Source of the DNA: Candidatus Daviesbacteria bacterium
Lineage (GTDB): Bacteria; Patescibacteriota; Microgenomatia; Daviesbacterales; UBA10151
Length of the DNA: 64,000 nucleotides
Reading direction: 5' to 3'
Assembly: GCA_016176415.1 (NCBI GenBank)
Contig: JACOXH010000002.1
Span: forward strand, 32,072 to 96,071
Positions within the stretch are counted from its first letter, which is position 1, and each line of letters opens with the position of its first letter. The translations under genes and the position numbers were made by a program. The notes beneath the pieces were generated by a model. That model worked only from the letters and a program-made list of their open reading frames with translations, searched no databases and had not been told where the DNA came from. This document shows, piece after piece, positions 24,481 through 59,792 of the stretch.

Positions 24481-25262
24481 TAGGGGTGGCGTTATATTGA
24501 CACCCCAGGTATTTTGGATTACATTAAATATTAATATGCCGCAAAGACCTGTGGTTTTAGCTAATAATGAAATTTATCATGTATTCAACCGTACCATTGG
24601 CGGACAGCAGATTTTTGCCCAGAATCAAAAGTTCAATTTAAGCAAAGCTTTGGAGATAGTAAATTATTATCGTTTTACCCAAAAGATTAGGCTCTCAAGA
24701 TTTAAACAGCTCCCTGCTGAACTGAAAAAACAATATTTGGATGCACTAGCAAGTACTGACCCTCTTGTTGAAATATATGCTTTTGCATTTATGCCAAACC
24801 ATTTTCACTTTTTGCTTAAACAGATAAGGGATAACGGCGTTGCTGCTTTTATTTCAAACTTTCAAAACAGTTTTGCTAAGGTTTTTAATTTAAAGAATAA
24901 TAGGAATGGGGCTTTATTCCAAAATGCTTTTAAAGCAAAAAGGATTGTATCTGATGAACAATTTGTACATATATCCCGTTACATTCATTTAAATCCCGTA
25001 ACAGCTTATATTATTGAGTTTGATAAATTAGCAAATTTTAAATGGACATCTTTTTCAGCTTATGTAACACAGGAACAAATACCACTTATAAACTCAGACT
25101 TTTTAGTACAGATGTTTGGAAGTAAGGAAAAATATGTTAACTTTGTTGCTGATCAGATAGATTACCAAAGGGATTTAGCTCAAATAAAGGATTTATTGAT
25201 TGAGGAATAAATTTTAACTTAAAATCCTGGTGTGTAAATATGATTTCACCCCTAGGGTGCAA
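24481..25262 (+). mobile_element. RAYT-type (IS200-like Y1) transposase gene flanked by inverted REP-like units
   Basis: REP units lie at 24481-24525 (reverse orientation) and 25222-25262 (forward orientation), on either side of the gene. Confidence 0.6.
24536..25210 (+). CDS. REP-associated tyrosine transposase / IS200-like Y1 transposase
   Basis: YHVFNRT, the HUH motif FMPNHFHFLLK, and YIHLNPV. ATG 24536 is preferred because the longer ORF start lies inside the REP unit. Confidence 0.75.
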   Translation: MPQRPVVLANNEIYHVFNRTIGGQQIFAQNQKFNLSKALEIVNYYRFTQKIRLSRFKQLPAELKKQYLDALASTDPLVEIYAFAFMPNHFHFLLKQIRDNGVAAFISNFQNSFAKVFNLKNNRNGALFQNAFKAKRIVSDEQFVHISRYIHLNPVTAYIIEFDKLANFKWTSFSAYVTQEQIPLINSDFLVQMFGSKEKYVNFVADQIDYQRDLAQIKDLLIEE

Positions 25263-26984: not shown

Positions 26985-27518
26985 ATGATAATTTTGGGTA
27001 TTGATCCCGGTACTGCCACAACAGGGTATGGTGTGATTAAAATTCCTGATGATATTTTAGGCAGGGAATTTAATTATGATATTGAGCTGGTAACTTACGG
27101 CAACATCAGCACACCTAAAGATAAACTCATGCAGGACAGACTGGACATGATTTACCGTCAGCTTAACAGCGTGATTGAAAAATACAAACCTGATCAGATG
27201 GTTTGTGAAATGCTTTTTTTTGGTTCAAATACCAAAACTGCTATTATGGTGGGGCAGGCAAGAGGGGTAATTATGCTGGCTGCTTCTCAACACAGAGTTC
27301 CTTTTACCGATTACACAGGGCCTCAAATAAAACTAATGGTAGCAGGATCAGGAAGGGCAGATAAGAATCAGGTGCATGATGGTGTGAGAAGGTTTTTAGG
27401 CACACCGGGTAGAAGAAGAAGTAAATTGAAAGTAAATTGGAAGGGTGGGCATCTGGATGACGCTACCGATGCTTTGGCTATAGCTATTTGTCATGTGTTA
27501 AAGCTGGCAGCAAAATAA
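26985..27518 (+). CDS. ruvC: crossover junction endodeoxyribonuclease RuvC
   Basis: ILGIDPGTATTGYGVI N-terminus and DDATDALAIAICH C-terminal motif. Confidence 0.9.
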   Translation: MIILGIDPGTATTGYGVIKIPDDILGREFNYDIELVTYGNISTPKDKLMQDRLDMIYRQLNSVIEKYKPDQMVCEMLFFGSNTKTAIMVGQARGVIMLAASQHRVPFTDYTGPQIKLMVAGSGRADKNQVHDGVRRFLGTPGRRRSKLKVNWKGGHLDDATDALAIAICHVLKLAAK

Positions 27519-27523
27519 GGAAT

Positions 27524-28312
27524 ATGAACCTGGTTATTAACAAAAGACAGAAAATAGTGCTCACAGCAGTCTTATTAACTATAGGACTTCTTTCCACCCA
27601 ACTGGTTGATTTTAATTTAAGATTCCGTTTTATAGGAGGTTTAGCAGCGCTGGCTTATGTCTTCTCTCTTTGGTCCTTATGGCAGGGTATAAATACTACC
27701 AAAGCTGTGACGCTGATGATTTTACCAACACTGTTTACCATAGCTGTAGCCAGTTTTTATTTTGTATTGCCTATCAGATGGCTGACCAGATTGCCTGTAG
27801 CTTTGTTATTTGGTCTGACTTTTTATCTCTTACTTTTAGCCCAAAACGTTTATAACGTAGCAAGCCTCCGCACGATTCCCTTATACAGAGCTGCTTCCAC
27901 AGCCAGCTTTTTGTTTACACTGCTTTCAGCTTTCTTTTTGTATCATGTAGTTTTTGCTTTTAACTTATTGTTTGTCTGGAATGGGGTAGTGGTATTTTTG
28001 ATAAGCCTTCCATTAATATTACAAGTGCTTTGGTCAATACAAATGGAAGATAAAATTCCAATCCATGTTTTAGTTCAGAGTTTTATACTGGCATTGGTAT
28101 TAGGGGAACTTGCTTTCAGTTTTTCATTTTGGCCTTTTTCCAAAAATTCAGTTATGTGGGCGTTATCGCTTTCATCTGCTATGTATGTTTTATTGGGTTT
28201 AACTACACAAAGATTGCGCGGTAAGCTCAATAAAAGGGTAGTGTGGGAGTATTTGGCAATAGGGGTGGTGGTGTTAGTTGTGAGTTTTCTCACAACTTTA
28301 TGGACCGGATAG
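27524..28312 (+). CDS. multi-pass membrane protein
   Basis: About 8 hydrophobic helices. ATG 27524 avoids an overlap with ruvC. Confidence 0.5.
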   Translation: MNLVINKRQKIVLTAVLLTIGLLSTQLVDFNLRFRFIGGLAALAYVFSLWSLWQGINTTKAVTLMILPTLFTIAVASFYFVLPIRWLTRLPVALLFGLTFYLLLLAQNVYNVASLRTIPLYRAASTASFLFTLLSAFFLYHVVFAFNLLFVWNGVVVFLISLPLILQVLWSIQMEDKIPIHVLVQSFILALVLGELAFSFSFWPFSKNSVMWALSLSSAMYVLLGLTTQRLRGKLNKRVVWEYLAIGVVVLVVSFLTTLWTG

Positions 28313-29237
28313 GCAGGATTTGAAGCTAAAAGTTAGAGAAAATATTGATATAACGGTCTAAACTAACAAAGAGTAGAGGAGTACCCCAAGAGTACTTGCC
28401 ACTTCGTGGTGGCGTGTGAAAAATTTACTCAAATTCCGTGAAAAGAATAATTGATATGGTTTGATATAGTTGCTAGGCACGAAGATTAAAAATTATAGGG
28501 TATATATTGTCCGGCGGGCAGAATGCTTGTCTCTGCGCTATTGAGGCTGTAGCACGCTTTTCTTTATTTACCAGCCTCCTTCCTTACAATACTCTTTTAG
28601 CAATGGCTGGCATAAATTGTGGATAAGTGCTAACGGTACCCAGGGTACGGGGAGGAGGTCCCTTTAGTTAAGATAAGAGTAACTAGGAAATGAGTGATGA
28701 GTCGTTTATTACTCTTACCGCGAAGTAGCAAGCTTGTTTATCCTCTTTTTCTAATAAGTTCATTCTTCCCTGCAATTTGATGTCGCACAATATGCGATAG
28801 GATAAGAAAACGGAGAAGTGGCTTTGGGCCTTTATTAGGGGTAATTAAATAAGTAGTATACAGGTAACTTAGAGGATTATTAATACAAATTTAAACAGCA
28901 TAATTCCCGTCTAAAAAATTGTTAAAATTTTTCTTCTGTTATTTTTTGCCTGATTAATGCTTTAGGGCTTTCTGACAATATAAACTTAAGGTAAGGTATC
29001 CTACCTCTTGTCCCCTCAAAAGCCGTTTTAGGGCCCTTTACGGGCTTCGTGCCTGTCAGGCTCAGATAAGATGCAGGCCATCAAAATTCAAACTTGGGAA
29101 CTTAAATTAGGTTATGGGAGCGCTATTGCATAACTCTAACACCACTTTCTTTTTAGTATTATTTTTTCTGTACCATAAAACTGATATCAAGTTTAATTTT
29201 GAGTCTGTAATTGTTGTTTGCCGTATATTTTTCCTGC
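28313..29237. other. ORF-free, hairpin-rich region (candidate structured RNA or recombination-site region)
   Basis: No ORF of 60 aa or more lies on either strand within 28313-29106; two minus-strand track ORFs at 29107..29319 and 29193..29402 overlap the 3' end and were judged spurious. There are many local stems, for example TAAGAGTAA...TTACTCTTA at 28672-28727 and GTACC-CAG-GGTAC at 28637-28649. Confidence 0.5.
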
Positions 29238-29275
29238 TTGACAAGGTTTGTTTAGCCTTGTTATTATTCTTGTAA
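29238..29275 (+). promoter_or_regulatory. promoter-like CTTGACAAGGTTTG element upstream of recombinase 1
   Basis: TTGACA lies at 29238-29243, followed by an AT-rich -10 candidate. A similar CTTGACAAAGGTTG lies at 30882, upstream of the 30931 gene. Confidence 0.3.
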
Positions 29276-29298
29276 TCAGCATTACACGAAGTATCAAT

Positions 29299-30297
29299 AT
29301 GGCTAACTCTGTTGGACAAAATTTAAATAAGATTGAAACTACTCTTCTTTTTTCCAACATGGATTTGATAGAAGACTTCTTTCTTTTTCTCCAAACCAAC
29401 AACTATTCCCCTATGACCATATATCATTATAAAAATGACATTGCTATATTTGATAATTTTCTAAAATCCAGAAATTTAAAAATTAAGGATTTGGATAAGC
29501 GTCAGATATTTGAATTTAAGGCTTATCTTTCATCTGATGAGAGGCAAAGTGCCACCACCCATCAGGAAGGGGCAAAAAGACTCTCATCAGCAAGCATAAA
29601 CAGGTGCTTATCAGCAGTCAGAGCTTATATAAGATTTTTAATTGAACAGGACTATGATACTCCTGTAGTTCCGGATCAGTTCAAAATGGTCAAACGTGAG
29701 CGTTTCCATCCTAATGTGGCAGAATTTAATGAATTGGTAGCACTCATTGAGTCACCATCAAAAATAGAACAGGATCCTGTCATAGCAGCTCGCAACAGAG
29801 CCATACTTGAAGTGTTGTTTGCGACAGGAATGCGTATTTCAGAGTTAGTTAATCTAAACAGAAGGGATTTAAACGATGAAGGAAAAATATTCATTACCGG
29901 TAAAGGGCGAAAACAGAGATTTGTTTATTTAACTCAGCGGTCACAAATCTATCTGGATCAATATTTAGCCTTAAGAAACGATAGTCAGCAGGCATTATTT
30001 ATACCTACAAAGACCCGAAGTAAAGATAAACTTTCTTCAAGGTTAACTCCCAGATATATTCAGGAAAGGCTTAAGACTTACAGAGAAAAGTTAAGGATCA
30101 ACTTGCCGACTACGCCGCATTCTTTCAGGCATGGTTTTGCAACATATTTAGCAGAAGAAGGAGCATCTCCTGCAGCAATTCAGATTTTACTGGGTCATGA
30201 ATCATTAAACACTACTACCCGTTATGTTAATGCCAGTGATCGTTTTGCCCAGGAGACTCACAGGAAATATCATCCTTTGGCTAAAAATGACAAATGA
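29299..30297 (+). CDS. tyrosine recombinase (divergent XerC/D-like integrase)
   Basis: Catalytic signature ATGMRISE (R), HSFRHGFAT (HxxR), LGHESLNTTTRYV (H, Y). ATG 29299 (MANSVGQ) is preferred over 29248. Confidence 0.8.
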   Translation: MANSVGQNLNKIETTLLFSNMDLIEDFFLFLQTNNYSPMTIYHYKNDIAIFDNFLKSRNLKIKDLDKRQIFEFKAYLSSDERQSATTHQEGAKRLSSASINRCLSAVRAYIRFLIEQDYDTPVVPDQFKMVKRERFHPNVAEFNELVALIESPSKIEQDPVIAARNRAILEVLFATGMRISELVNLNRRDLNDEGKIFITGKGRKQRFVYLTQRSQIYLDQYLALRNDSQQALFIPTKTRSKDKLSSRLTPRYIQERLKTYREKLRINLPTTPHSFRHGFATYLAEEGASPAAIQILLGHESLNTTTRYVNASDRFAQETHRKYHPLAKNDK

Positions 30298-30823: not shown

Positions 30824-30930
30824 GGAAACCTTGCGATCCTCCGGATCTAAATCTTAGTCGCACAATATTAGGGTCCACCCTTGACAAAGGTTGCTGCTAT
30901 AGTTCAGTATGAATATAAGCTCTAAATTTC

Positions 30931-33528
30931 ATGGGAGAATTCTTGGATTATTTTAAAAATAAAAAAAACCTCGCTAACCTACTCCTTTTGGGGATTTTAG
31001 TAATGGCCCTGCCTATTGCTGTGCAAACCATGCGCCAGTCTCAGATTATAAAATCAAGGGCTGCTGCAGGAGACATTGTATTTACAGGTAATAATTTGGT
31101 TACTTTGCCGGGGAATAAGTTAGGTTTTAAGTTAGATCCTGCAGGAAAGCCGGTAGTGGGACTAGAAATCTCCTCCCCCATTGAATCAGCTACCCAAACA
31201 GCCTGGGGAGGTTTGATGGGAATAGTATATGCAGGGCATACCTGTCCAACAACCAATGATTATTGTGATGGAACGAGATTATGCCATGATACATGCGACG
31301 CAGAAGGAAATGAAGGTCATACGTGCGAGGGTGAAAATACTTGTCCAGGATCTCAGCCTCCTCCACCTAATGCAACTTGTAGTAATGGAACAAAAAAAGT
31401 TGGAGATAAGTGGCCTGAGTGCCGCGGGTGCGATGAGGGCGTGGTTGAGTGTGTAGGGCAAGATCTATATGACTTTAAATCTGTAAAAAATCCTTCAGGT
31501 AATTGTGGACCACAATGTGCTACTAATGAATGTAAATGGAGGGGTGATTCTGCTGATAAATATAACCAATGTTGCGGAGACTTTAAAAGTCAACAGATAA
31601 CCAGAAAGAAAGATGCAAGTGGTAATATTTGTGGTTACGACAAAGGAGAATGTAATCAAACTGATCCGGCTTGCGGTGGAACTACCTGTCCTACTGGTCA
31701 GGATAAGGTTTCGGCAGCTATAGCAGCACAGATGAAAGCCGGTAATTACAGAGTTAGCGACGCTATAGTTGGTGAAGATATGCAGGAATATAAAGGAACT
31801 GGTTTATGTGGTTATAAATACTATGTGTGGCAGGGCAATTTGAGTACTGGTGAGGCTTGTGCTACGTATAGCTTTGGTAAATGGGCAGATCAGAATGCCT
31901 GTCCTAAAGGGCAGTGTACTGTTGAGTGGACTATTTCGGATAAAGTACCTGCTGCAAACAAAACTGTTTCAGTAAATATCAAAGGAGTAAAGGATTCAGG
32001 AGGTTGGCAGAATGTTGATTTACTTCTTGATGGAAGCAAAACAGGGGTAACAGCTGCCGGGATGGATGGCGGTTCCACCCCCCTATTTAAATACAATGTA
32101 AACTCCGGTAGTGCAGGTAAGCATACTTTGAGTTTTACCACCAACAGCGGCAAAGCTACCTGTACACCTGTTGGAGAGTTTACTACCGGTGGTGTTACGG
32201 ATAAGTGTCCTGCTGACAGTGCTTTGACGGTGACTCCTTCTACTGCCAAAGTTGGAGACGAGATGGTCTTTTTCTACCCTGCTGATGGCAAGCATGAGTT
32301 AAATCTTGGTACTGACACATGGAGCGAAGGGATTGACGCAGGCAGCTGTAAATTTGATCTTGGAGCTCACAAATATACCTGTAAAGCTCAAAGCGCTACT
32401 GATAATGGTTATTGGAACCATAAATGGGACAGCGGTAAACAGTGCGGTTCAGCTGCTTATAAAATTACCGGTACCACAGTTGTAACCACCACTCACTACA
32501 GAGTTGCTGAAAGCCCGACTGATTTTTCTGAAACAGGAAAATATGGTTGGCAGGAGTATACTTCTACTCCGGTGAAGACTTCTTATGAATTTAATGATAA
32601 AACTCCGGGGTTAAAAAATATCTTTGTAGAGTTTAAAGGCTCAGACGGAAAAGTATTTGGCAGAAAACCTGCTCAAATTAAACTGTTAAGCGCTGACCCA
32701 ACTATCACCAGCTGTTCATTGAGTTTTGAGGCCAATAATACTACTGTATTAAACCTGACCGGAACAGATTTTGGAAAAGATAAAGGTGCTGTTAAAAGCG
32801 GTGATAATACCCTAACTATTAAAGAATGGAAAGATAAAAGCATTAAAGCAGTTTTCCCCAGCGCTCCTGAAGGAGAAAAGCTGCCTGTAGCAGTTTCAAA
32901 TATAGACGGCCAATTAGTAGAAGGTCAATGCAGTGCCATTACATCGTTAGCGTTGGGAGCAAAAGTTTTCTGCAGGACAGCCTCCTCGCAAGATACTGAT
33001 AATGTAGACCTTGCCTTAACCGGTGACTTCCCCGGCGGTACTAAATCCAAACAAAAAGTCAAAATTGATAAAGAAGGCAATATTGCAGGTTTAAATCAAA
33101 AGATGGAAGAAGGTAAAAATTATAAATTAACCCTGAAAGCTCCAAAATCAGTCCGTAAAACTGTCAGTTTTACAGCAGTAGCGGGCGGCGCCATCAATAT
33201 CCCCAACTTTGTCTTGCCCATAGGAGATATTATGCCTGTTCCGGGTGGAGACGGCACAATTAATTCTTTGGATAAAGGTGAGTTAAATAGACAATGGATT
33301 ATTGCTCAATCAGCTACCGGCCGTTCAGGAGACTTCAATAATGACGGCAGAGTTAATTCAATAGATTGGGCCTGCATGAGGCATGATTTTGGAGCTTCAG
33401 ATGATCCTGAACCTCAAGCACCTTTAGCTACTCCCATTCCTGCCGGTATAGGCACAACAGCTCCTGCAGGAATAGGTGTAACCGTTTCAACACAAAATTT
33501 AAATGTTGGAACAACAGCTGCACCCTGA
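30931..33528 (+). CDS. large Cys-rich surface protein with IPT/Ig-like repeats and a C-terminal dockerin-like module
   Basis: N-terminal TM/signal anchor and an approximately 240 aa Cys-rich region. An IPT-like segment (ITSCSLSFEANNTTVLNLTGTDFG) follows. The C-terminus has duplicated Ca-binding-type segments GGDGTINSLD and GDFNNDGRVNSID. Confidence 0.65.
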   Translation: MGEFLDYFKNKKNLANLLLLGILVMALPIAVQTMRQSQIIKSRAAAGDIVFTGNNLVTLPGNKLGFKLDPAGKPVVGLEISSPIESATQTAWGGLMGIVYAGHTCPTTNDYCDGTRLCHDTCDAEGNEGHTCEGENTCPGSQPPPPNATCSNGTKKVGDKWPECRGCDEGVVECVGQDLYDFKSVKNPSGNCGPQCATNECKWRGDSADKYNQCCGDFKSQQITRKKDASGNICGYDKGECNQTDPACGGTTCPTGQDKVSAAIAAQMKAGNYRVSDAIVGEDMQEYKGTGLCGYKYYVWQGNLSTGEACATYSFGKWADQNACPKGQCTVEWTISDKVPAANKTVSVNIKGVKDSGGWQNVDLLLDGSKTGVTAAGMDGGSTPLFKYNVNSGSAGKHTLSFTTNSGKATCTPVGEFTTGGVTDKCPADSALTVTPSTAKVGDEMVFFYPADGKHELNLGTDTWSEGIDAGSCKFDLGAHKYTCKAQSATDNGYWNHKWDSGKQCGSAAYKITGTTVVTTTHYRVAESPTDFSETGKYGWQEYTSTPVKTSYEFNDKTPGLKNIFVEFKGSDGKVFGRKPAQIKLLSADPTITSCSLSFEANNTTVLNLTGTDFGKDKGAVKSGDNTLTIKEWKDKSIKAVFPSAPEGEKLPVAVSNIDGQLVEGQCSAITSLALGAKVFCRTASSQDTDNVDLALTGDFPGGTKSKQKVKIDKEGNIAGLNQKMEEGKNYKLTLKAPKSVRKTVSFTAVAGGAINIPNFVLPIGDIMPVPGGDGTINSLDKGELNRQWIIAQSATGRSGDFNNDGRVNSIDWACMRHDFGASDDPEPQAPLATPIPAGIGTTAPAGIGVTVSTQNLNVGTTAAP

Positions 33529-34185: not shown

Positions 34186-34895
34186 TAAAGTCAATTGCCC
34201 TGCTTTTTGTTTTATCTTTTTGGCTTTTAGCGCTGCCTGCTGAGGCTTTAGCAGCAACTTTATCACTCTCCCCTTCTTCGGGTACATTAAACAGAGGGTG
34301 TCCTGTCTCCCTGGATGTAATAGTGGATACTCAAGGCGCCCAAACAGACGGTACAGATGCCATATTGGTATACGATGCTACCAGATTTACTGCCAGCAGT
34401 ATCACACCAGGTACTATTTATCCTGATTTTCCGGGTAATAACATTAATGAGACCAGCGGCAAAATTACTATTTCCGGACTGGCTTCAGTGTCAACCCCTT
34501 TTACAGGTAAAGGCGCGCTGGCCAAAATTAACTTAACTGTGAAAGATGAGGCTCCGACAGGTTCTACCAAAATACAATTTGATTTTGATCCCAATGATAA
34601 AGGCAAAACTACGGATTCCAATATAGTTGAAAGAACAACGGTGGCTGATGTTTTGAATGCTGTGACAGACGGTAATTACATCATTGGTACAGGAGCCTGT
34701 GGTTCTCAGCCTGTAGCAACTACAGCTCCAAAACCCATTGGAGGTGAAGGCACTCCTTCAGGCCAGCCAAAAACCATTGATGATTTAGTTGATAAAGACG
34801 GAAAAGGTCCCGGTACGCCCCAACTGACTTACACAATAGCAATTATAGGATCAGTTTTGACAGTTTTAGGTATTTTAGGTTTGGCTCTGCTATGA
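34182..34895 (+). CDS. secreted cohesin-like domain protein with a C-terminal TM anchor
   Basis: Signal peptide, then VSLDVIVDTQGAQTDGTDAILVYDATRF...LAKINLTVKDEAPTGSTKIQF, and a C-terminal IAIIGSVLTVLGILGLALL. Confidence 0.55.
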   Translation: MIKSIALLFVLSFWLLALPAEALAATLSLSPSSGTLNRGCPVSLDVIVDTQGAQTDGTDAILVYDATRFTASSITPGTIYPDFPGNNINETSGKITISGLASVSTPFTGKGALAKINLTVKDEAPTGSTKIQFDFDPNDKGKTTDSNIVERTTVADVLNAVTDGNYIIGTGACGSQPVATTAPKPIGGEGTPSGQPKTIDDLVDKDGKGPGTPQLTYTIAIIGSVLTVLGILGLALL

Positions 34896-35812
34896 CCCTT
34901 TCTGCGCGAATCACAGACTTTTTAGAGTATCTGGAGCTTGAGCGTAATGTCTCACAGCTGACTATCAGAAATTACGATCATTATTTAAAGAGGTTTTTGG
35001 AATTTTCCGGTGACATTGATCCTAAAGAGATAAATTTAAATTTAGTGCGTAAATTCAGGCTTTATCTGTCGCGCTGGAGCGATCCCAAAACAGGAAAACC
35101 TCTTAAAAGGATCACTCAAAATTACTTTATGATAGCTTTAAGAGCTTTTTTGCGGTATTTGGCAAGAGTAGATATTGTAACTTTATCTGCTGAAAAAGTG
35201 GAGCTGGGAGATCCGGAACCCAGACCTTTGAAAGTTTTGGATGAAACTCAACTTAAATCTTTACTGGAAGCGCCCAATGTAACAGAAGTGGCGGGAATAA
35301 GGGATAGGGCTATTTTGGAAACACTTTTCTCCACAGGTTTAAGGGTTTCTGAACTGGCTTCTTTAAATACAGACACTATTAATTTACAAAGGAAAGAGTT
35401 TGGAATTGTTGGTAAAGGGGGTAAAGAGCGGGTGGTGTTCGTTTCTGATTCTGCTGCCCTTTGGCTTGAAAAATATCTTTCTGCAAGACATGATACGTAT
35501 AAACCTTTGTTTATCAGGTTTCAGGGTAAAGAAAATCCGGCAGATAATGGTGAGGCAATGAGGCTGACTCCCCGATCAATAGAGAGGATTGTGGAAAAAT
35601 ATGTCAAACAATTAGGCTTTTCTGTAAAAGCCACCCCTCATACTTTAAGGCATTCTTTTGCCACAGATTTACTGATCAATGGGGCTGACATACGCTCTGT
35701 ACAGGAAATGTTGGGTCATTCCAATATTTCCACCACCCAAATCTACACCCACGTTACCAATACGCATCTTAAAGATGTGCATAAGGCGTTTCATTCAGGC
35801 AATAAGGACTAA
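34892..35812 (+). CDS. tyrosine recombinase XerC/XerD-like
   Basis: STGLRVSE, HTLRHSFATDLL, LGHSNISTTQIYTHV. Its ATG overlaps the upstream stop codon (ATGA). Confidence 0.85.
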   Translation: MTLSARITDFLEYLELERNVSQLTIRNYDHYLKRFLEFSGDIDPKEINLNLVRKFRLYLSRWSDPKTGKPLKRITQNYFMIALRAFLRYLARVDIVTLSAEKVELGDPEPRPLKVLDETQLKSLLEAPNVTEVAGIRDRAILETLFSTGLRVSELASLNTDTINLQRKEFGIVGKGGKERVVFVSDSAALWLEKYLSARHDTYKPLFIRFQGKENPADNGEAMRLTPRSIERIVEKYVKQLGFSVKATPHTLRHSFATDLLINGADIRSVQEMLGHSNISTTQIYTHVTNTHLKDVHKAFHSGNKD

Positions 35813-54139: not shown

Positions 54140-55846
54140 ATGCCCAATTTTGCTGCCCAGAATTACACCATTGAAGACATTCTTTTTAAGCAGGGATTAA
54201 TCAGCGCTGATCAGCTTTCCCAGGTTAAATTAGAAAGTATTAACTCCGGACAGCCTGTTGAAAGCATCTTAATCACCCATAAAGTGGTGCCGGCTGACAA
54301 AATTATTCAGGCTAAAGCCCAAATTTTGGGAGTTCCCTATATTAAACTTGAAGATAAAGCAATCTCTGCAGATATTTTAAATCTGATTCCTGAACCTGCT
54401 GCCCGCCGCTATTCCATTATTCCTTTTGAAAAAAGAGAAGACGAGCTGTCTGTGGCAATGGCAGACCCTTTAGATATCCAGATTACTCAATTTATAGAAA
54501 AGAAAACCGGTTTGCGGGTTAAGCCGTTTTTGGCACAACAGGAAGATATTATAAAAGCAATTTCCGATCAGTATTCTCAAAATTTAACTTCAGAAGTAAC
54601 TTCTGCTTTGCAGGAAGTGGAAGCTGTTACGCCTGATGAGGAGACGGCAGCAGGACCGGAAATCTTACGCGAAGCTCCTGTTTCCAACATTATTGATCAT
54701 TTGCTGCAATATGCCATCAAAAGCCGCGCCTCTGATATTCACGTTGAGCCGCAGGAAGACCGGACCCGCGTACGCTACAGAATAGACGGTATTTTGCAGG
54801 AAAAAGTTTTACTTCCAAAGGGTGTACACGATGCTTTAGTTTCCAGGGTGAAGATCTTATCAGTCCTAAAAATTGACGAGAAAAGACTGCCTCAGGACGG
54901 CAGGTTTACATTTACCTATGGGAAGGACGTAATAGATCTGCGTGTTTCCACTATCCCTACAGTTTTTGGTGAAAAGGTAGTGATGAGGCTTTTGCCCAAG
55001 TCAATGGGGGCGCCCACGCTTTTGGAACTTGGTTTAAGAGGGGTATCTTTTAAGGCTTTGGAAGGTCAGATGCTCCGTACACACGGTATTATTTTAATCT
55101 GCGGGCCTACAGGTTCAGGTAAAACTACTACTCTTTATTCAGTATTGAGTAAAATTTCTACAACCAAAGTTAACGTGGTAACCATTGAAGATCCGGTAGA
55201 GTATCAAATTGCCGGCGTAAATCAGGTTCAGGCAAATCCCCAGGTTGGTTTAACTTTTGCTTCCGCTTTGCGGAGTTTCCTGCGTCAGGATCCCAATATT
55301 ATTATGGTGGGAGAAATCCGTGATACGGAAACTGCAGATTTGGCAATTCAGGCTGCTTTAACCGGACATCAGGTTTTTTCCACTATTCACACCAACTCTG
55401 CTGCCGGCGCCCCTCCCAGGCTTTTGGATATGGGCGTTGAGCCCTTTTTACTGATTTCTGCTCTGAATGCAGTAGTAGGACAAAGAGTTGTCAGAAAAAT
55501 TTGTTCTCACTGCAAAGCCGAATTTAATGCCCCGCCTGAAGTGGCAGAAACAATTAAACATATTTTAGGCAGACTGCTTCCTCCCTCTACAGGAATTTTA
55601 AAACTGTACAAAGGGAGGGGTTGTAATTTTTGCGCCAATACCGGTTATTTAGGCAGAGTGGGAATATTTGAAGTTTTAGTAATTACGGATCAAATTGCTA
55701 AGTTGGTTTTGGAGCATGTTTCATCTCATTCTATCGAAGAGGCTGCTGTTTCTGCAGGCATGATTACTATGAAACAGGATGGGTATTTGAAAGTTCTGGA
55801 AGGCGTGACTACCATGGAGGAGGTGTTAAGAGTCGCACAAGATTGA
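54140..55846 (+). CDS. pilB: type IV pilus assembly ATPase PilB (GspE family)
   Basis: N-terminal GSPII_E_N-like domain, Walker A GPTGSGKTTT, and the tetracysteine CSHC...CNFC. Confidence 0.9.
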   Translation: MPNFAAQNYTIEDILFKQGLISADQLSQVKLESINSGQPVESILITHKVVPADKIIQAKAQILGVPYIKLEDKAISADILNLIPEPAARRYSIIPFEKREDELSVAMADPLDIQITQFIEKKTGLRVKPFLAQQEDIIKAISDQYSQNLTSEVTSALQEVEAVTPDEETAAGPEILREAPVSNIIDHLLQYAIKSRASDIHVEPQEDRTRVRYRIDGILQEKVLLPKGVHDALVSRVKILSVLKIDEKRLPQDGRFTFTYGKDVIDLRVSTIPTVFGEKVVMRLLPKSMGAPTLLELGLRGVSFKALEGQMLRTHGIILICGPTGSGKTTTLYSVLSKISTTKVNVVTIEDPVEYQIAGVNQVQANPQVGLTFASALRSFLRQDPNIIMVGEIRDTETADLAIQAALTGHQVFSTIHTNSAAGAPPRLLDMGVEPFLLISALNAVVGQRVVRKICSHCKAEFNAPPEVAETIKHILGRLLPPSTGILKLYKGRGCNFCANTGYLGRVGIFEVLVITDQIAKLVLEHVSSHSIEEAAVSAGMITMKQDGYLKVLEGVTTMEEVLRVAQD

Positions 55847-55850
55847 TATA

Positions 55851-55972
55851 AATTCTAAGCACTAAATCCTAAATACTAAACAAATCCAAATGTACAAAAT
55901 ACAAAATTCAAAACTTTTGAACATTTGATATTTGGATTTTGATATTGTTTAGAGTTTAGATATTAGAATTTA
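55851..55972. repeat. approximately 120-nt imperfect palindrome built from CTAAAT-type heptamers
   Basis: The left arm (55851-55892) is complementary to the right arm (55931-55972). It lies in the pilB-pilT spacer. Confidence 0.7.
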
Positions 55973-55987
55973 GAGTTTAATAAAATT

Positions 55988-57040
55988 ATGAACATACAAC
56001 AGCTTTTAGATATAACGGTTCAGAGAAATGCTTCGGATTTACACTTGTCCGTAGGGTTTCCGCCCATTGTAAGGGTTCACGGAGAACTTTTGCCGGTTCC
56101 CGGCGAAGAAGCGATTTCACCCCAACAGATGGACAGTTTAATTTTGCCCCTTATTTCCGATATACAAAAAAATATTTTCTCACAAACTTTCGAGTTGGAT
56201 TTTTCCTTTGAACATCAGGGAAAAGCAAGATTCAGGGTTAACCTTTACAGGCAAAAAGGCCACCCTGCAGTATCACTCCGGCTGATCCCCTACACTATCC
56301 CCCAGGTTGCACAATTAGGATTTCCGCAGGTAATCAGCAGAATGCTGGAACTCAAACAGGGGTTTATTTTGGTAACCGGTCCTACAGGTCATGGCAAATC
56401 AACTACTTTGGCCTCGTTTATCAATCAAATTAACCAAAGCCGCGCTGCTCACATTATTACCATTGAAGATCCCATTGAATATGTTTATCCTGCCGGTAAG
56501 TCATTAATAGAACAAAGAGAGATGTATTCTGATACAAGGTCGTGGGACAATGCCCTGCGTGCTTCTTTGCGTGAAGATCCGGATGTGGTGTTAATCGGTG
56601 AAATGAGAGATCTGGAGACGATTGCATCAGCTATGACTATTGCTGAAACAGGACATTTGGTTTTTGCCACGCTGCATACTAACTCTGCTGCTCAGTCAGT
56701 TGACCGTATTATTGACGTTTTCCCTGAAGTTCAACAGCCGCAAATCAGGCTTCAGTTGGCAGCAACACTGGAAGCTATCCTGTCGCTCCGTCTTGTGCCT
56801 ACTGTTAGCCCGGGCAGAGTTTTAGCTTCAGAGTTGTTGTTTGCTACACCGGCGGTGCGCAATGTAATCAGAGAAGGAAAATCATACCTGATTGATAATA
56901 TTATTGAAACATCAGCAGAATCAGGCATGCAGACTCTGGAAAAATCACTGGCTGATTTAGTTAAAAAAGGAAGAATTTCGCAGGAAGTAGCCGGCCGTTA
57001 CTCGCTCCGTCCTGAATTACTGTATAAGCTTATTAAATAA
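55988..57040 (+). CDS. pilT: twitching motility / pilus retraction ATPase PilT
   Basis: ASDLHL, Walker A GPTGHGKSTT, and GHLVFATLHTNSA. Confidence 0.9.
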   Translation: MNIQQLLDITVQRNASDLHLSVGFPPIVRVHGELLPVPGEEAISPQQMDSLILPLISDIQKNIFSQTFELDFSFEHQGKARFRVNLYRQKGHPAVSLRLIPYTIPQVAQLGFPQVISRMLELKQGFILVTGPTGHGKSTTLASFINQINQSRAAHIITIEDPIEYVYPAGKSLIEQREMYSDTRSWDNALRASLREDPDVVLIGEMRDLETIASAMTIAETGHLVFATLHTNSAAQSVDRIIDVFPEVQQPQIRLQLAATLEAILSLRLVPTVSPGRVLASELLFATPAVRNVIREGKSYLIDNIIETSAESGMQTLEKSLADLVKKGRISQEVAGRYSLRPELLYKLIK

Positions 57041-57048
57041 CTCAGACT

Positions 57049-58248
57049 ATGGAATTTTTATACAAAGCCAAAGATCTGCAGGGTGAGGATCATACCGGTA
57101 GCGTTCAGTCTCCTGATGCTCATTCTGCTGCAGCAATTATAAGAAAAAAAGGGCTGATTATTATTTCTATTAATCTCAAGAATGCTCCTGCAAATAGGTT
57201 TTTGGACCGTTTTTTAAACAGGGTCAGTTTAACGGAACTGGTGATTATTACCCGGCAGCTGGCCACTATGGTATCCAGCGGTTTAGTTTTGTCTGAGGCA
57301 ATAGATATTTTGGAAGAACAGCAGATTAATAAGACCTTAAAAAAGGCCTTGTCAGAAATTTCCCAGGATATCAAAGGAGGGCTTACTCTGGCTCAGGCTT
57401 TGAGCAAATATCCTGATATTTTTCCTCATCTTTACGTAAATTTGGTTAAAAGCGGAGAGGCTTCGGGAAAACTGGATACAGTTTTGCTGCAAATGGCGGA
57501 CGGGCTGGAAAAAGACAGGGAATTTCAGTCCCGGATCCGCGGTGCCCTGATTTATCCTGTGGTTGTAATGACAATGATGGTAGTAGTGATGATTATTATG
57601 ATGGTTTTTGTTATTCCAAAATTATTGTCTCTTTATTCCCAATCAACTATAGAATTACCTCTTCCTACAAAAATCCTGATTACAACTTCCAACATTTTTG
57701 TAAATTTTTGGTGGGCGGGCCTGGCAGTTTTGGTTCTGGCGGTGACGGGTCTAACCCGCTGGAAACGGACGCCGCAAGGCAGTTTATTTTTAGGCAGGCT
57801 GATTTTGAGGACCCCTATTATCGGGAAAATTGCCTCAAACGTGGTTTTGACTAATTTTACCCGTACATTCGGATTGCTTACTGCTGCCGGTATCCCTTTG
57901 CTTGAATCGATCGGCATAGTGTCTGATTTAACAGATAACCCTGTCTATAAAAATGCCCTTAAGGATGCATACAACGGTGTTGAGAAAGGTCTGCCTTTTT
58001 CTTCACTTTTGGTTTCTTCTGTTTTCCCTAAAATTGTCAGTCAGATGATTAAGGTCGGTGAAGAAACGGGAAAGTTAGATGCAATCTTTTTAAAACTTTC
58101 AGAGTATTTTGAATCTGAATCAGATCATTTGGTCAAAAACTTAACAGTGGCAATAGAACCGGTTGTCCTGATTATTTTAGGGATAGGTGTGGCATTTTTG
58201 GTGATCTCCATAATCCTACCTATTTATAAGTTGACAACATCATTTTAG
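57049..58248 (+). CDS. pilC: type IV pilus platform protein PilC (GspF family)
   Basis: Two GspF-like repeats and three TM segments. Confidence 0.9.
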   Translation: MEFLYKAKDLQGEDHTGSVQSPDAHSAAAIIRKKGLIIISINLKNAPANRFLDRFLNRVSLTELVIITRQLATMVSSGLVLSEAIDILEEQQINKTLKKALSEISQDIKGGLTLAQALSKYPDIFPHLYVNLVKSGEASGKLDTVLLQMADGLEKDREFQSRIRGALIYPVVVMTMMVVVMIIMMVFVIPKLLSLYSQSTIELPLPTKILITTSNIFVNFWWAGLAVLVLAVTGLTRWKRTPQGSLFLGRLILRTPIIGKIASNVVLTNFTRTFGLLTAAGIPLLESIGIVSDLTDNPVYKNALKDAYNGVEKGLPFSSLLVSSVFPKIVSQMIKVGEETGKLDAIFLKLSEYFESESDHLVKNLTVAIEPVVLIILGIGVAFLVISIILPIYKLTTSF

Positions 58249-58339
58249 TGTCTAGATTTTAGCGACTAGACTCTAATTGACACTTGACGACTCGTCATAA
58301 ATTGTGTCTACAATGAAATACAAGAGGGGGTGAGAAATT

Positions 58340-58879
58340 TTGAAAAAATCTGCTCAAGTTCACAAAGGTTTTACCCTTGTTGAACTTTTAATTGTTATGG
58401 CAATCATGGGTATTCTAGCCCTGGTTGTTTTAGTGATTATTAACCCTTTGGAGGTAACCCGCCGGGGACGCGATTCAGCCCGTTTGGCTGATTTAGCCAG
58501 TTTGCAGCAGGCAATTAACGTAGCTGTACAAGAAGCAACTACTTCTTCAGCTGAAATCCTTTGTAGTGGGACCACTGCTCCGTGTAGTGGCTCTAGTCAC
58601 ACAGGCAGCAGAAGCGCTAACGGTACAGGTTGGATAAAAGTCGACTTGTCTTCAAATTCGACCATGTCAGTTGCAGCTTTACCAATTGATCAGACCAACA
58701 GCAGTCAATACCATTATACTTATTGTTCTGATGGTAACGCCTGGGAAATTAATGCAACATTGGAGTCTCAACAGCAGTCAGGTAAGCCAGGAAACGATGG
58801 GGGTAATGACCCCGCGCTTTACGAGGTTGGATCTAATTTAGGACTTATTGCCACGTCAGGGGGAAGTTGTTCTTATTAA
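58340..58879 (+). CDS. type IV pilin (candidate major pilin)
   Basis: The prepilin leader ends KGFTLVELLIVMAIMGIL. TTG start with a GGGGGTGAG ribosome-binding site. Confidence 0.8.
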   Translation: MKKSAQVHKGFTLVELLIVMAIMGILALVVLVIINPLEVTRRGRDSARLADLASLQQAINVAVQEATTSSAEILCSGTTAPCSGSSHTGSRSANGTGWIKVDLSSNSTMSVAALPIDQTNSSQYHYTYCSDGNAWEINATLESQQQSGKPGNDGGNDPALYEVGSNLGLIATSGGSCSY

Positions 58880-58883
58880 ATAA

Positions 58884-59792
58884 ATGTGGGAGTCAGCAGG
58901 CTTTATAACCGGTATTATTTTAGGTAGTTTTGCTAAGGCGCTGGCTGACAGGAGTTTAGGCAAAAACTCATTTTGGGGAAGGTCGTACTGTCCATCCTGC
59001 AAAGCAGGATTAAGGTGGTACGACCTCTTTCCCGTTTTCTCATATCTGCTTCTTAAAGGCCGGTGCAGATACTGTCATAGGAAGATTGGTATTGAATATT
59101 TAGTGGTTGAGGTAGTGATGGGAGTATTAATAGCGTTTCTTTTTACCCAGACATTTGTTAATTTTAAATTTGAAATTTTTAATTTTTATTCAATTTTAAA
59201 TTTTAAATTTTTAATTTTTATTTTCGAACTGATACTTAAAATTTTCTTTATTACTGTTTTGACAGCTTTATTCATAACTGATATTAAAAAAATGCTGATT
59301 CCTGACAGAATTGTTATACCTGCTATTTGGATCGGACTCACTTCCCTCTTTGCGTTGACTGCTTATAAAATCGGGTATCTTTACTATTATCTTTCAAGTA
59401 ATCTGTTGGGAAGGTACCTTCTGCCTCCCAATGAATATTTCGGGAGACATGCTTTAATAATCTCTCAACCTCTTTTGTACGGGATTGGGACAGGTTTTGG
59501 TATAGCTGCTTTTTTCTACATTATTATATTGCTAACCCGGGGTAAAGGCATGGGCGGAGGTGACGTAAAATTGGGCGCATTTATGGGGTTGATGTTGGGA
59601 TTTCCCAATGGTATTTTGGCTTTAATTTTGTCATTCTTAACAGGCGCTGTTTTTTCCGTTATGCTGATTATTGCCGGTAAAAAACATTTCGGACAGGTTA
59701 TTCCGTTTGGACCCTTTCTTGTGGCCGGCAGTTTAATTGCTCTTTTTTGGGGAAACAGAATTATTGATTGGTATTTACAGATTGGTCGGTAA
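58884..59792 (+). CDS. pilD: prepilin peptidase (A24 family)
   Basis: N-terminal CPSC...CRYC, the catalytic-Asp context GGGDVKL, and multiple TM segments. It contains an A/T-only repeat insert. Confidence 0.85.
   Translation: MWESAGFITGIILGSFAKALADRSLGKNSFWGRSYCPSCKAGLRWYDLFPVFSYLLLKGRCRYCHRKIGIEYLVVEVVMGVLIAFLFTQTFVNFKFEIFNFYSILNFKFLIFIFELILKIFFITVLTALFITDIKKMLIPDRIVIPAIWIGLTSLFALTAYKIGYLYYYLSSNLLGRYLLPPNEYFGRHALIISQPLLYGIGTGFGIAAFFYIIILLTRGKGMGGGDVKLGAFMGLMLGFPNGILALILSFLTGAVFSVMLIIAGKKHFGQVIPFGPFLVAGSLIALFWGNRIIDWYLQIGR
59158..59224. repeat. A/T-only tract with two tandem units of about 31 nt, inside pilD
   Basis: ATTTTAAATTTGAAATTTTTAATTTTTATT / AATTTTAAATTTTAAATTTTTAATTTTTATTTT. It encodes NFKFEIFNFYSILNFKFLIFIF. 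Confidence 0.8.

Follow-up and report, generated by a model that had tools for sequence, protein, structure and literature searches.

A conserved, ORF-free element of about 0.6 kb upstream of an Xer-family recombinase gene in Candidatus Daviesbacteria

Introduction

CPR bacteria have very small and tightly packed genomes. In a genome of Candidatus Daviesbacteria, a member of this group, a gap at positions 28313-29298 of the window (the whole stretch of 64,000 nucleotides analysed here) lies directly in front of a tyrosine recombinase gene, which raises the question of what a gap of this length contains and whether it has to do with its neighbor. An earlier sequence-only reading of the same DNA described the gap as ORF-free and dense in local stems and named three candidates: a large structured non-coding RNA associated with the recombinase, an arm-site-rich attachment region, or a badly decayed gene. 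Here we present the genomic setting of the gap and its comparison with related genomes, together with RNA-structure tests and a weighing of the possible explanations.

Genomic setting and coding capacity

The upstream neighbor of the gap is a DUF5656 membrane protein gene (27488-28312, plus strand; Pfam PF18900), which is preceded by the YebC and RuvC genes (PF01709 and PF02075). The downstream neighbor is an Xer-family tyrosine recombinase gene (29299-30297, plus strand; PF00589 and PF02899), whose product scores under the cutoffs of both the XerC and the XerD model. A second Xer-like gene is located 4.6 kb downstream, past a surface-protein cluster, and the genes on either side of the gap are mostly on the plus strand. 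As had been reported, 28313-29298 contains no ORF of 60 aa or more except two minus-strand ORFs that clip its 3' end. The ORF-free length is 935 nt up to the TTG at 29248 and 986 nt up to the ATG at 29299. This is the longest stretch of the window without cover by ORFs of at least 90 aa, the next ones measuring 451, 250 and 218 nt.

Two non-conserved spacers border the central part of the gap. The first, 28313-28402, follows the DUF5656 stop codon, stops just 5' of a GCCAC/GTGGC stem (28399-28414) and has column identities of 0.10-0.35 in an alignment of 21 gaps; the second, 29066-29225, leads to the recombinase promoter (identity 0.08-0.39). The recombinase gene is preceded by a conserved promoter and 5' UTR of its own, apart from the central part (29238-29298, plus strand), with TTGACA-18-TATTAT including a TG and a conserved hairpin formed by UGUAAU (29271-29276) and AUUACA (29281-29286).

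A search of the whole window against Rfam 15 at gathering thresholds delivered only a tRNA-Leu at 2262-2346. At E-values up to 10, the region 28100-29500 gave chance matches only, none above 19 bits, and nothing was found in the element in six homolog loci at E-values up to 5. The families covered comprise RNase P, tmRNA, SRP, 6S, group I and II introns, OLE, GOLLD, ROOL, HEARO and riboswitches. ARAGORN detected no tRNA or tmRNA in the gap; the sequence-only reading had seen no match to tmRNA, RNase P RNA, SRP RNA or tRNA. Because group I introns located within the tRNA genes of Patescibacteria were described in a 2026 paper (PMC13011429), intron-split tRNA and tmRNA genes were also searched for in 29 homologs with ARAGORN, with a reduced threshold and a maximum intron length of 900 nt; no gene was obtained.

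No ORF in any frame is shared across 20-30 genomes, clustering of small ORFs came out empty, and the ORF-lets of the window have no match in Pfam, which refutes the suggested decayed gene. Short open frames do exist, for example from the ATG of TAGATGA in some homologs, and could be taken for unannotated small genes. However, this candidate start is absent from the window and several homologs, a TAG/TGG polymorphism breaks the frame, the conservation lacks three-periodicity and indel lengths do not follow multiples of three. That the region is a protein gene in decay or holds several unannotated small ORFs is thus scarcely credible.

Conservation across genomes

In about 35 related genomes and metagenome contigs, RuvC and DUF5656 are followed by an ORF-free gap of 0.7-1.4 kb and then by an Xer-like recombinase, an order that persists down to 59-69% recombinase identity. 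The gap holds a colinear element of 480-680 nt across homologs, which in the window occupies 28403-29065 (about 660 bases). It is present in every related Daviesbacteria genome examined and partly in Woykebacteria; within an entire class it stays at one position, and partly so in a sister class. Its architecture consists of conserved sequence blocks and variable spacers with sharp edges, block conservation being 0.55-0.82 versus 0.04-0.3 in the flanking spacers. All nhmmer matches to the blocks in Daviesbacteria and Woykebacteria loci lie on one strand and in one order. Besides the 21 gaps used for column identity, 29 sequences were aligned for the whole element and 32 for its 3' block.

The best 120 DUF5656 homologs listed originate from close Daviesbacteria relatives only. 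Viral contigs scanned with an invariant 15-mer of the element yielded chance matches only, and the other blocks were absent in all of them. In the literature we found no description of such an element, nor of lineage-specific non-coding RNAs for CPR bacteria. The nhmmer comparison that had been proposed did find conservation outside this genome, and the conserved gap with its colinear element of about 0.6 kb supports the general claim that something functional and non-coding is located here. Judged by sequence comparison, 28403-29065 on the plus strand forms a separate non-coding locus that is confined to one clade and has long been kept between the DUF5656 gene and the recombinase gene.

Organization of the element

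All features of the element are given for the plus strand. At its 5' edge, 28415-28445 carries two YGTGAAAA direct repeats, TGTGAAAAA (28415-28423) and CGTGAAAAG (28437-28445), 22 bp apart; the pair is conserved in nearly all homologs with a constant spacing of 21-22 bp, and the word CGTGAAAA occurs 54 times on the plus strand inside the elements. These repeats are predicted to be upstream regulator or promoter-proximal boxes. They are followed by tandem extended -10-like boxes (TGnTATAGT) at 28452-28470, TGATATGGT (28452-28460) and TGATATAGT (28462-28470), which are among the best conserved columns of the alignment. A matching box type, TGATATAAT, is found 13 nt upstream of the tRNA-Leu and also before several ORFs. 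On the plus strand, TGATATAGT occurs 46 times inside the elements versus 7 times outside, and among 59 loci the tandem pattern is confined to the element. From this we infer that 28452-28470 would act as a promoter, with a transcription start near 28467-28478.

Directly behind lies the left copy of an inverted repeat, AGGCACGAAG (28475-28484), whose partner CTTCGTGCCT is located at 29045-29054. The end of the first conserved block, 28486-28503, reads AAAAATTATAGGGT in the window and TGTGGAAAACTATRGGG in many homologs; it represents site 1 of an alternative TGTGGAWAA box, which is empty in the window. At 28504-28604 follows a lineage-variable insertion module (identity 0.04-0.17) that most homologs lack. 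Insertions of variable length share this one point, after CTATARGG. In four homologs (L009, L014, L021 and L030) the insertions carry long hairpins, which in L009, L030 and L014 measure 12-13 bp, are of unrelated sequence and have folding z-scores of -3.7 to -5.1; the window's own insertion has a z-score of +0.44.

A small hairpin, UGGCA/UGCUA (28608-28632), bears in its loop TGTGGATAA (28618-28626), a perfect DnaA-box word, the sole perfect match in the gap and site 2 of the alternative box. The segment 28636-28756 comprises a ACCCGAAG-like motif, the purine block GGGGAGGAGG (28648-28658), a hypervariable core of 75 nt and the pyrimidine block CCTCTTTTTC (28743-28752). At 28766-28795, CTTCCC...GATGTCGCACAATAT forms invariant columns in the 29 sequences and includes the invariant 12-mer GTCGNACAATAT at 28782-28793. 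A conserved purine-rich box, CGGAGAAGTGGCT (28812-28824), precedes an AT-rich tract (28825-28958; GC 0.30), which is poorly conserved except for TTCCCGTCYAAA (28905-28916). The length of this tract is held to 129-142 nt across homologs, in which it contains short, lineage-specific tandem repeats, and its folding z-score is +0.28.

The 3' conserved block, 28959-29065, is detected in homologs with nhmmer E-values down to 1e-29. It contains a GTTTAGG..CCTAAAC inverted repeat, TAGATGA, CTTATCCCC, AGCCGTTTTTGGGGCC..GGCCTCGTGCC and GCCT-N3-5-AGGC. Conservation drops sharply at about 29065, and no terminator was found when one was looked for at this 3' edge.

Recurrence of motifs outside the element

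A second copy of the 12-mer, GTCGCACAATAT (30857-30868, plus strand), lies 12 nt upstream of a TTGACA at 30881, which together with TGCTATAGT forms the predicted promoter of a dockerin-domain gene at 30931. This arrangement occurs in at least 15 homolog loci, with GTCGNACAATAT modally 11-12 nt upstream of TTGACA. A near copy, GTCGCACAAGAT (55832-55843, plus strand), is found at the pilB stop codon; behind it come an AT-rich tandem-repeat tract and a TGATATTGT box before pilT. Outside the element the 12-mer is located only at promoters. Sharing of GTCGNACAATAT with the promoters of the dockerin/cohesin operon and pilT suggests a possible co-regulation with cell-surface genes.

The word TGTGNAWAA occurs 37 times in 29 elements, in a single orientation, at 2.1 per kb versus 0.10 per kb outside (20-fold). 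A full match of this type is present in 28 of the 29 homologs at one of two alternative positions, site 1 or site 2, an either/or pattern that, from the alignment, is binding-site turnover. Some lineages also carry the palindrome TTTTCACGCGTGAAAA or TTTCCACATGTGGAAA.

Tests for RNA structure

The stems listed in the sequence-only reading are all present at the positions given. Their density, which had been taken as conspicuous, is not above chance (MFE z-scores of the gap against dinucleotide shuffles -0.94 on the plus and -1.51 on the minus strand), and most of them lack conservation across homologs. The GCCAC/GTGGC stem exists but is located just upstream of the conserved part, whereas the mutually exclusive CAGCC/GGCTG helices fall inside the insertion at about 28504-28604, which is missing from most homologs. 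TCGCA-CAATA-TGCGA has its 5' arm within the invariant 12-mer but a variable 3' arm, and TAAGAGTAA/TTACTCTTA belongs to a segment (28673-28732) that aligns poorly across homologs, at 24-38% identity. GATAAG does recur four times (28622, 28672, 28801 and 29065), while TTAGGG, also reported four times, was counted three times. Seven 6-mers occur at least four times, versus 4.8 +/- 2.1 in dinucleotide shuffles.

With default settings, RNAalifold gave no consensus pairs, neither for the whole element (29 sequences) nor for the best-aligned 3' block (32 sequences). Ribosum scoring produced a few helices, all of which failed the pair-count controls: observed versus column-shuffled pairing was 78.6 versus 77.2% and 83.3 versus 83.0%, and the covariation score 0.172 versus 0.161 and 0.180 versus 0.181. 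No covariation was detected among 26 candidate pairs checked in the 3' block. The 8-bp core of AGGCACGAAG/CTTCGTGCCT pairs in 85% of cells, but shuffled columns do as well, and the comparison of cognate with non-cognate partners revealed no cognate advantage. The purine and pyrimidine blocks are complementary (-12 kcal/mol), yet cognate and non-cognate duplexes are equal there too, and 28636-28756 has a z-score of -0.93. Only the small UGGCA/UGCUA hairpin shows a weak cognate advantage (p=0.013), with pair counts that indicate no covariation; for all other candidate helices cognate duplex energies equal non-cognate ones.

Mean folding z-scores of the segments range from -1.1 to +0.3, with about -0.9 for the first half of the element and +0.9 for 28472-28795 of the window. 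Compatible stacks of columns, searched for all against all, amounted to low-complexity G/U noise only. On the plus strand, candidate helices gain 1-2.5 kcal/mol in stability over the minus strand. That the GGAUAAG loop pairs over a long range with CUUAUCC was rejected, as such pairing shows no correlation with the box position. Manual comparison with conserved regions of RNase P, group II intron domain V, T-arm or tmRNA-like termini and C/D-box or K-turn motifs revealed likenesses that were too weak. Of the proposed large structured non-coding RNA, the conservation was found, but neither covariation nor excess folding stability.

Relation to the recombinase and to replication

The tie between element and recombinase is one of gene order only, and nothing shows that the two work together. 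Of the three earlier suggestions, the arm-site-rich attachment region comes nearest, insofar as many oriented sequence boxes are present, but a dif-like or core-type recombination site is absent, the region has one orientation in all assemblies, and its top invariant box is a promoter-associated signal elsewhere. That the element is a substrate of the recombinase, either as a fimS-like invertible segment bounded by the inverted repeat AGGCACGA/TCGTGCCT or as an attachment or resolution site with arms, is quite improbable. In favor of a substrate are the 8-10 bp inverted repeat around about 570 bp beside a tyrosine recombinase gene, its core kept in most homologs, with a promoter at the border; the direct copies of GTCGNACAATAT on either side of the recombinase gene; and the second Xer-like gene downstream. 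The internal orientation is, however, identical in all of the about 35 independent assembled loci, so that the second orientation of a switch was not seen, and the inverted repeat has mismatches in many genomes. Within one genome, the two copies of the 12-mer mostly disagree at the variable base, no dif consensus is found in the window within 3 mismatches, and the best 11-6-11 palindrome at the 3' end, with 7.0 matches, does not rise above the background (6.8 +/- 1.0). An integrated element flanked by 12-mers as attL and attR was rejected: the shared stretch measures just 12 nt, its copies have different variable bases in about 10 of 15 genomes, and the arrangement is old and fixed throughout the class.

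The element resembles the fimS switches (FimB/FimE) and Bacteroides invertons in its length of about 0.57 kb, short inverted repeats, adjacent tyrosine recombinase gene and border promoter elements; it differs in that its promoter lies outside the repeat, which is imperfect in many genomes, and that a single orientation is found in the assemblies. With cer, psi, XerS/difSL and XerH/difH it shares conserved non-coding DNA by an Xer-family gene and one-sided oriented boxes. Unlike these Xer sites it has no dif-like core and no terminus skew switch, and a non-conserved spacer of 170 nt and a separate promoter lie between element and gene.

A chromosomal replication origin or terminus is very improbable. 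DnaA-box-like words beside an AT-rich tandem-repeat tract in the largest intergenic region would fit, but only one DnaA box is perfect, dnaA and dnaN are not adjacent, GC skew is positive on both sides with a cumulative skew that rises monotonically through the site, and both flanks carry mostly plus strand genes.

Possible explanations

The explanation we tentatively prefer, at somewhat less than an even chance, is a non-coding RNA locus, constrained in sequence and transcribed independently, with predicted regulator sites. In this view, oriented YGTG(G)AWAA boxes, as putative regulator sites, flank the tandem extended -10 promoters (28452-28470), which would fire rightwards into about 0.3-0.6 kb encoding no protein. 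The conserved parts of the RNA product would be sequence motifs, single-stranded or protein-bound, with no compact covariation-supported fold, and lineage-specific hairpins would be inserted at a single point. GTCGNACAATAT would be a DNA-level promoter-associated signal, common to the dockerin/cohesin operon and pilT promoters. Transcription as such, its strand, start and end, and any regulatory link are predictions. Synteny with an ORF-free gap in about 35 loci, sharp-edged blocks on one strand and in one order, and a conserved TGnTATAGT tandem that matches boxes upstream of the tRNA-Leu and ORFs argue for this transcription unit. So do hairpin insertions of 12-13 bp and unrelated sequence at one point, the higher stability of candidate helices on the plus strand, and a recombinase promoter that is separate, together with the missing conserved ORF and Pfam match. 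Against it stand the absence of consensus pairs in RNAalifold, pair counts equal to shuffles, cognate duplexes equal to non-cognate ones and weak folding z-scores. In addition, the top invariant motif is found upstream of unrelated promoters and would not be transcribed from them, the AT-rich tract, with free sequence, tandem repeats and tight length, looks like DNA spacing, and the 3' edge has no terminator.

The main rival, only slightly less probable, is a purely DNA-level binding-site array, a regulatory or architectural nucleoprotein region with no RNA product. Its parts would be the DnaA-box-like YGTG(G)AWAA boxes, AGGCAC/GTGCCT half-sites, the GTCGNACAATAT box and the phased AT-rich spacer, and it might be a cluster that titrates DnaA or binds a regulator, or else an upstream control region of complex build. 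Consistent with such an array are the enrichment of TGTGNAWAA in one orientation with turnover between two positions, and the recurrence of GTCGNACAATAT, in at least 15 genomes near the TTGACA of a further promoter and also near pilT. Half-site repeats that keep sequence but not complementarity, the palindromes of some lineages, an AT-rich tract constrained in length but free in sequence and the absence of RNA covariation point the same way. It leaves unexplained two strongly conserved consensus -10 boxes that face into the element, as well as the inserted hairpins, which share one site but are unrelated in sequence; each element has just one consensus DnaA box, and a 0.6-kb control region with no attached regulated gene would be unusual, given a self-contained recombinase promoter 170 nt further on. 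The element is like datA, DARS, the Bacillus DBCs and DnaA-regulated promoters in carrying TGTGGATAA and relaxed boxes, enriched 20-fold, with a turnover that keeps one per element. It is unlike DnaA-box clusters in having a single consensus box and a single orientation.

The original idea of a large structured non-coding RNA acting with the adjacent tyrosine recombinase as guide, scaffold or cofactor is unlikely. An Xer-family gene does adjoin the element in every genome examined, the complementary ends at 28475-28484 and 29045-29054 would suit a terminal helix, and an RNA that Rfam does not contain would be new. All structure tests are negative, however, and two homologs (L062 and L063) do not preserve the 3' arm of the terminal pairing. 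DUF5656 and RuvC are just as tightly syntenic, so that gene order does not single out the recombinase, which is an unremarkable Xer-like protein containing every standard domain. OLE, GOLLD, ROOL, raiA and HEARO RNAs are families defined by an extensive secondary structure with covariation support, and Rfam contains all of them. Like these, the element is ORF-free, about 0.5-0.7 kb long, conserved in a clade and equipped with a promoter-like element and variable insertions; unlike them it has no Rfam match, even at E-values up to 5-10, no covariation and no excess stability. That the element serves, as RNA or nucleoprotein, as an accessory or architectural partner of the two Xer-family recombinases on either side of the dockerin/cohesin surface-protein cluster is likewise improbable.

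Implications

Long ORF-free gaps with visible stems are, without covariation, not evidence of a structured RNA. Because small and packed CPR genomes keep 0.6 kb of non-coding DNA at one position, the element is likely to be important. The 12-nt promoter-associated box and the DnaA-box-like word could help to define regulons in uncultured organisms. Should the partnership with the two recombinases be true, it would imply a CPR-specific system of site-specific recombination or phase variation, in which the 0.6-kb control region would combine a terminal inverted repeat with oriented boxes and a box also found at surface-protein and pilus promoters. If there is transcription of the element, the CPR gain a clade-specific non-coding RNA; if it acts as DNA only, it would represent an unusually elaborate array of binding sites.

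Genomic setting

Window positions 28403-29065 (+ strand) hold a real, discrete and long-conserved non-coding locus, here called the element. It occupies most of the gap (28313-29298) between a DUF5656 membrane-protein gene (27488-28312, + strand), which is preceded by the YebC and RuvC genes, and a Xer-family tyrosine recombinase gene (ATG at 29299, end at 30297, + strand). The gap is the longest stretch of the window without an ORF of at least 90 aa (935-986 nt against 451 nt for the runner-up), and the absence of ORFs described in the sequence-only reading is therefore real. That reading had also called the gap hairpin-rich and its short words recurrent. All of the listed stems are present and GATAAG occurs four times; TTAGGG occurs three times rather than four. 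These features are at chance level because folding (z -0.94 on the + strand, -1.51 on the - strand) and the number of repeated 6-mers match dinucleotide shuffles. The ORF at 24497-25210, 3 kb 5' of the gap, has a weak match to the IS200-like Y1 transposase domain (PF01797, E 2e-6).

The recombinase is an ordinary Xer-family protein and scores under the curated XerC and XerD cutoffs. A second Xer-like gene (34892-35812) lies beyond the dockerin/cohesin genes. The cluster between the two Xer-family genes encodes one dockerin-domain protein of 865 aa and two proteins with cohesin domains; several homologous loci (L002, L007, L009, L017) likewise have another Xer-like match, some 5-6 kb 3' of the first. 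The recombinase gene has its own canonical promoter, TTGACA-17/18-TATTAT (29238-29267, + strand), conserved together with a 5' UTR hairpin (29238-29298 and homologous positions of L001-L022, L060 and L063). This hairpin stands just before the start codon and varies on both arms between lineages (UGUAAU-CAGC-AUUACA versus GAGUAUAA-UCAACC-UUAUACUC or UUCGUAUAA-UCAUCC-UUAUACGAA). No obvious Shine-Dalgarno sequence was found 3' of it, and the hairpin may be a translational or stability control element.

Conservation and organization

Homologous loci were collected with the recombinase protein as query. Genomes, each species being represented by one, gave 28 loci and metagenomes another 31, and three more homologs with 64-69% identity were added through exact protein look-up. 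Many loci belong to Candidatus Daviesbacteria and a few to Woykebacteria. The order RuvC, DUF5656, a gap of 0.7-1.4 kb and recombinase is kept in all loci long enough to judge, and no ORF common to the compared gaps was found. The element is linked as tightly to the DUF5656 and RuvC genes as to the recombinase gene, so the recombinase is not singled out as its functional partner.

The gap alignment resolved conserved blocks at 28403-28512, 28600-28660, 28733-28830 and 28893-29062, and a separate block at 29223-29298 that corresponds to the promoter and 5' UTR of the recombinase gene. Conservation is absent from 28313-28402, 28512-28600 and 29066-29222. In profile searches the blocks of the element were collinear and on one strand in about 35 loci, with a span of 480-680 nt, which confirms conservation outside the genome of origin and excludes chance, a neutral spacer and recent decay. 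Only the first block is clearly kept in the Woykebacteria loci. In L015 and L016 the extra gap length is a 163-aa ORF without assigned function (L016 5463-5954), placed between the recombinase promoter/5' UTR and the coding sequence. In L062 (2918-3390) the interval from the element to the recombinase gene holds a mobile insertion composed of a 92-aa HNH-endonuclease ORF and another ORF of 68 aa, with a TGGTATAAT box and a copy of ATAGGCACGAATG before them; the locus is otherwise fixed.

At the 5' edge of the element, YGTGAAAA is directly repeated at a spacing of 22 bp (28415-28423 and 28437-28445, + strand), followed by the tandem boxes TGATATGGT (28452-28460) and TGATATAGT (28462-28470, + strand). 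TGnTATAAT-type boxes also occur 13 nt 5' of the tRNA-Leu gene of the window and before several ORFs, and the tandem boxes thus have the local promoter form; among the homologous loci the tandem arrangement is found at the element only. The adjacent AGGCACGAAG (28475-28484, + strand) is the perfect complement of CTTCGTGCCT at 29045-29054. It is followed by an insertion point that is empty in most homologs and holds 30-180 extra bases in the window and a few others. Further 3' are a small hairpin with the perfect DnaA-box word TGTGGATAA as its loop (28618-28626, + strand), purine and pyrimidine blocks flanking a hypervariable core, and the nearly invariant GATGTCGCACAATAT followed by CGGAGAAGTGG. 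An AT-rich tract and a 110-nt 3' block close the element. The sequence of the tract is free, with lineage-specific tandem repeats, yet its length is 129-142 nt in the homologs.

RNA structure

No known RNA family was recognized in the element: Rfam gave no match to it in the window with either gathering thresholds or a cutoff of E<=10, nor in six homologous loci at E<=5. ARAGORN detected no tRNA or tmRNA in 29 homologs with introns of up to 900 nt allowed.

RNAalifold returned zero consensus pairs for the whole element (29 sequences) and for the well-aligned 3' block (32 sequences). The few helices that emerged under ribosum scoring had 78.6% of cells paired, against 77.2% after partners were shuffled among sequences, and a covariation score of 0.172 against 0.161, a value attained by 70 of 500 shuffles. 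For the terminal pairing plus the small hairpin the values were 83.3% against 83.0% paired and 0.180 against 0.181. An alignment-free test set the pairing of each 5' block with its own 3' block against its pairing with 3' blocks from other genomes. Neither the terminal helix nor any of three further long-range candidates paired better with its own partner than with a foreign one, and the small hairpin alone had an own-partner advantage, a weak one (p=0.013). The 3' arm of the terminal pairing is missing in L062 and L063. Mean folding z values of five segments in the homologs were -1.1, -0.9, +0.2, +0.3 and -0.4; for the first half of the element the value was -0.9 in the homologs and +0.9 in the window.

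Against these tests, two observations lean towards RNA structure. On the + strand every candidate helix gains 1-2.5 kcal/mol in stability, a difference consistent with G-U pairs but also with the G+T-rich composition, and the insertion point carries 12-13-bp hairpins of unrelated sequence in three lineages (z -3.7 to -5.1; the window has none, z +0.44). Overall, what is conserved in the complementary segments is their sequence and not their pairing.

DNA-level signals

The 12-mer GTCGNACAATAT (28782-28793) has a second copy at 30857-30868, before the 865-aa dockerin-domain gene, where it lies 12 nt 5' of a promoter of consensus type (TTGACA ... TGCTATAGT). This second copy is present in at least 15 homologous loci (named: L002, L003, L006, L009, L012, L016, L017, L019, L021, L030, L035, L039, L053 and L060), with constant strand and a modal position 11-12 nt before TTGACA. 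A copy with one mismatch lies at the pilB stop codon (55832-55843), ahead of a tract of AT-rich short tandem repeats and of the pilT -10 box. GTCGNACAATAT is thus a recurrent promoter-proximal box, placed before the dockerin/cohesin surface-protein operon and, as the near copy, between pilB and pilT; these positions suggest that the cell-surface genes form a regulon or that the box is an alternative promoter element. Other motifs of the element do not recur outside it. The type IV pilus cluster (54140-59792) encodes PilB-like and PilT-like ATPases, a PilC-like platform protein, a pilin with an N-methylation motif and a prepilin peptidase; the AT-rich repeats of its pilB-pilT spacer (55847-55987; AAATTCTAA, ACTAAATCC, CAAAATAC) resemble the AT-rich tract of the element.

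In 29 elements, 37 instances of the relaxed DnaA-box word TGTGNAWAA were counted, all in a single orientation; their density is 2.1 per kb, compared with 0.10 per kb for the flanks. The full TGTGGAWAA box is present in 28 of the 29, at either of two positions about 40 nt apart (28486-28503 versus 28618-28626), both states being interleaved among close and distant relatives; this placement looks like binding-site turnover. A palindrome, TTTTCACGCGTGAAAA or TTTCCACATGTGGAAA, occurs in L017, L019, L030, L009 and L063 (before ACCCGAAG), L020 (5384-5400) and L049 (3379-3395). It shares a half-site with the direct YGTGAAAA repeats and is like parS, but with two more central bases.

Interpretation

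We tentatively favor the reading of the element as an independent transcription unit. Two consensus -10 boxes, among its best-conserved positions, point into a conserved body with sharp ends, a single strand and a single order, and insertions occur as hairpins at one site. The predicted RNA would be constrained by sequence and not by fold, the surrounding boxes would be regulator sites, and GTCGNACAATAT may be an internal boundary or control signal shared with the cell-surface genes. Somewhat less probable, and a real possibility, is that there is no functional RNA and the whole element is an array of protein-binding sites with phased spacing. Such an array accounts for the absent covariation, for the turnover of the boxes, for a promoter box shared with other genes and for the constrained length of the AT tract, but leaves the promoter boxes and the divergent hairpins unexplained.

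The remaining explanations are much less likely. The large structured RNA tied to the recombinase, proposed in the sequence-only reading, is unsupported and improbable, covariation and folding stability being at shuffle level. A recombination substrate appears slightly less probable again: the dif consensus is absent from the window, the palindrome in the 3' end of the element does not rise above background, and the 12-mer copies are not att-type repeats because their free base differs between both copies in most genomes. Viral contigs scanned with the invariant 15-mer gave chance matches only. An origin or terminus is very unlikely, since the GC skew keeps its sign and genes run rightward on both flanks. 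Least probable of all is the decayed gene, another candidate of that reading: the open frames of all six frames form clusters that do no more than mirror the nucleotide blocks, with no start or stop in common, and the short ORFs of the window in the gap have no Pfam match.

No description of the element was found in Rfam or the searchable literature. Its most fitting classification is a new, conserved non-coding locus specific to one clade, with a non-coding RNA or a regulatory array as the candidates, and not a new kind of system; a conserved non-coding locus of this sort is notable in the streamlined genomes of the CPR.
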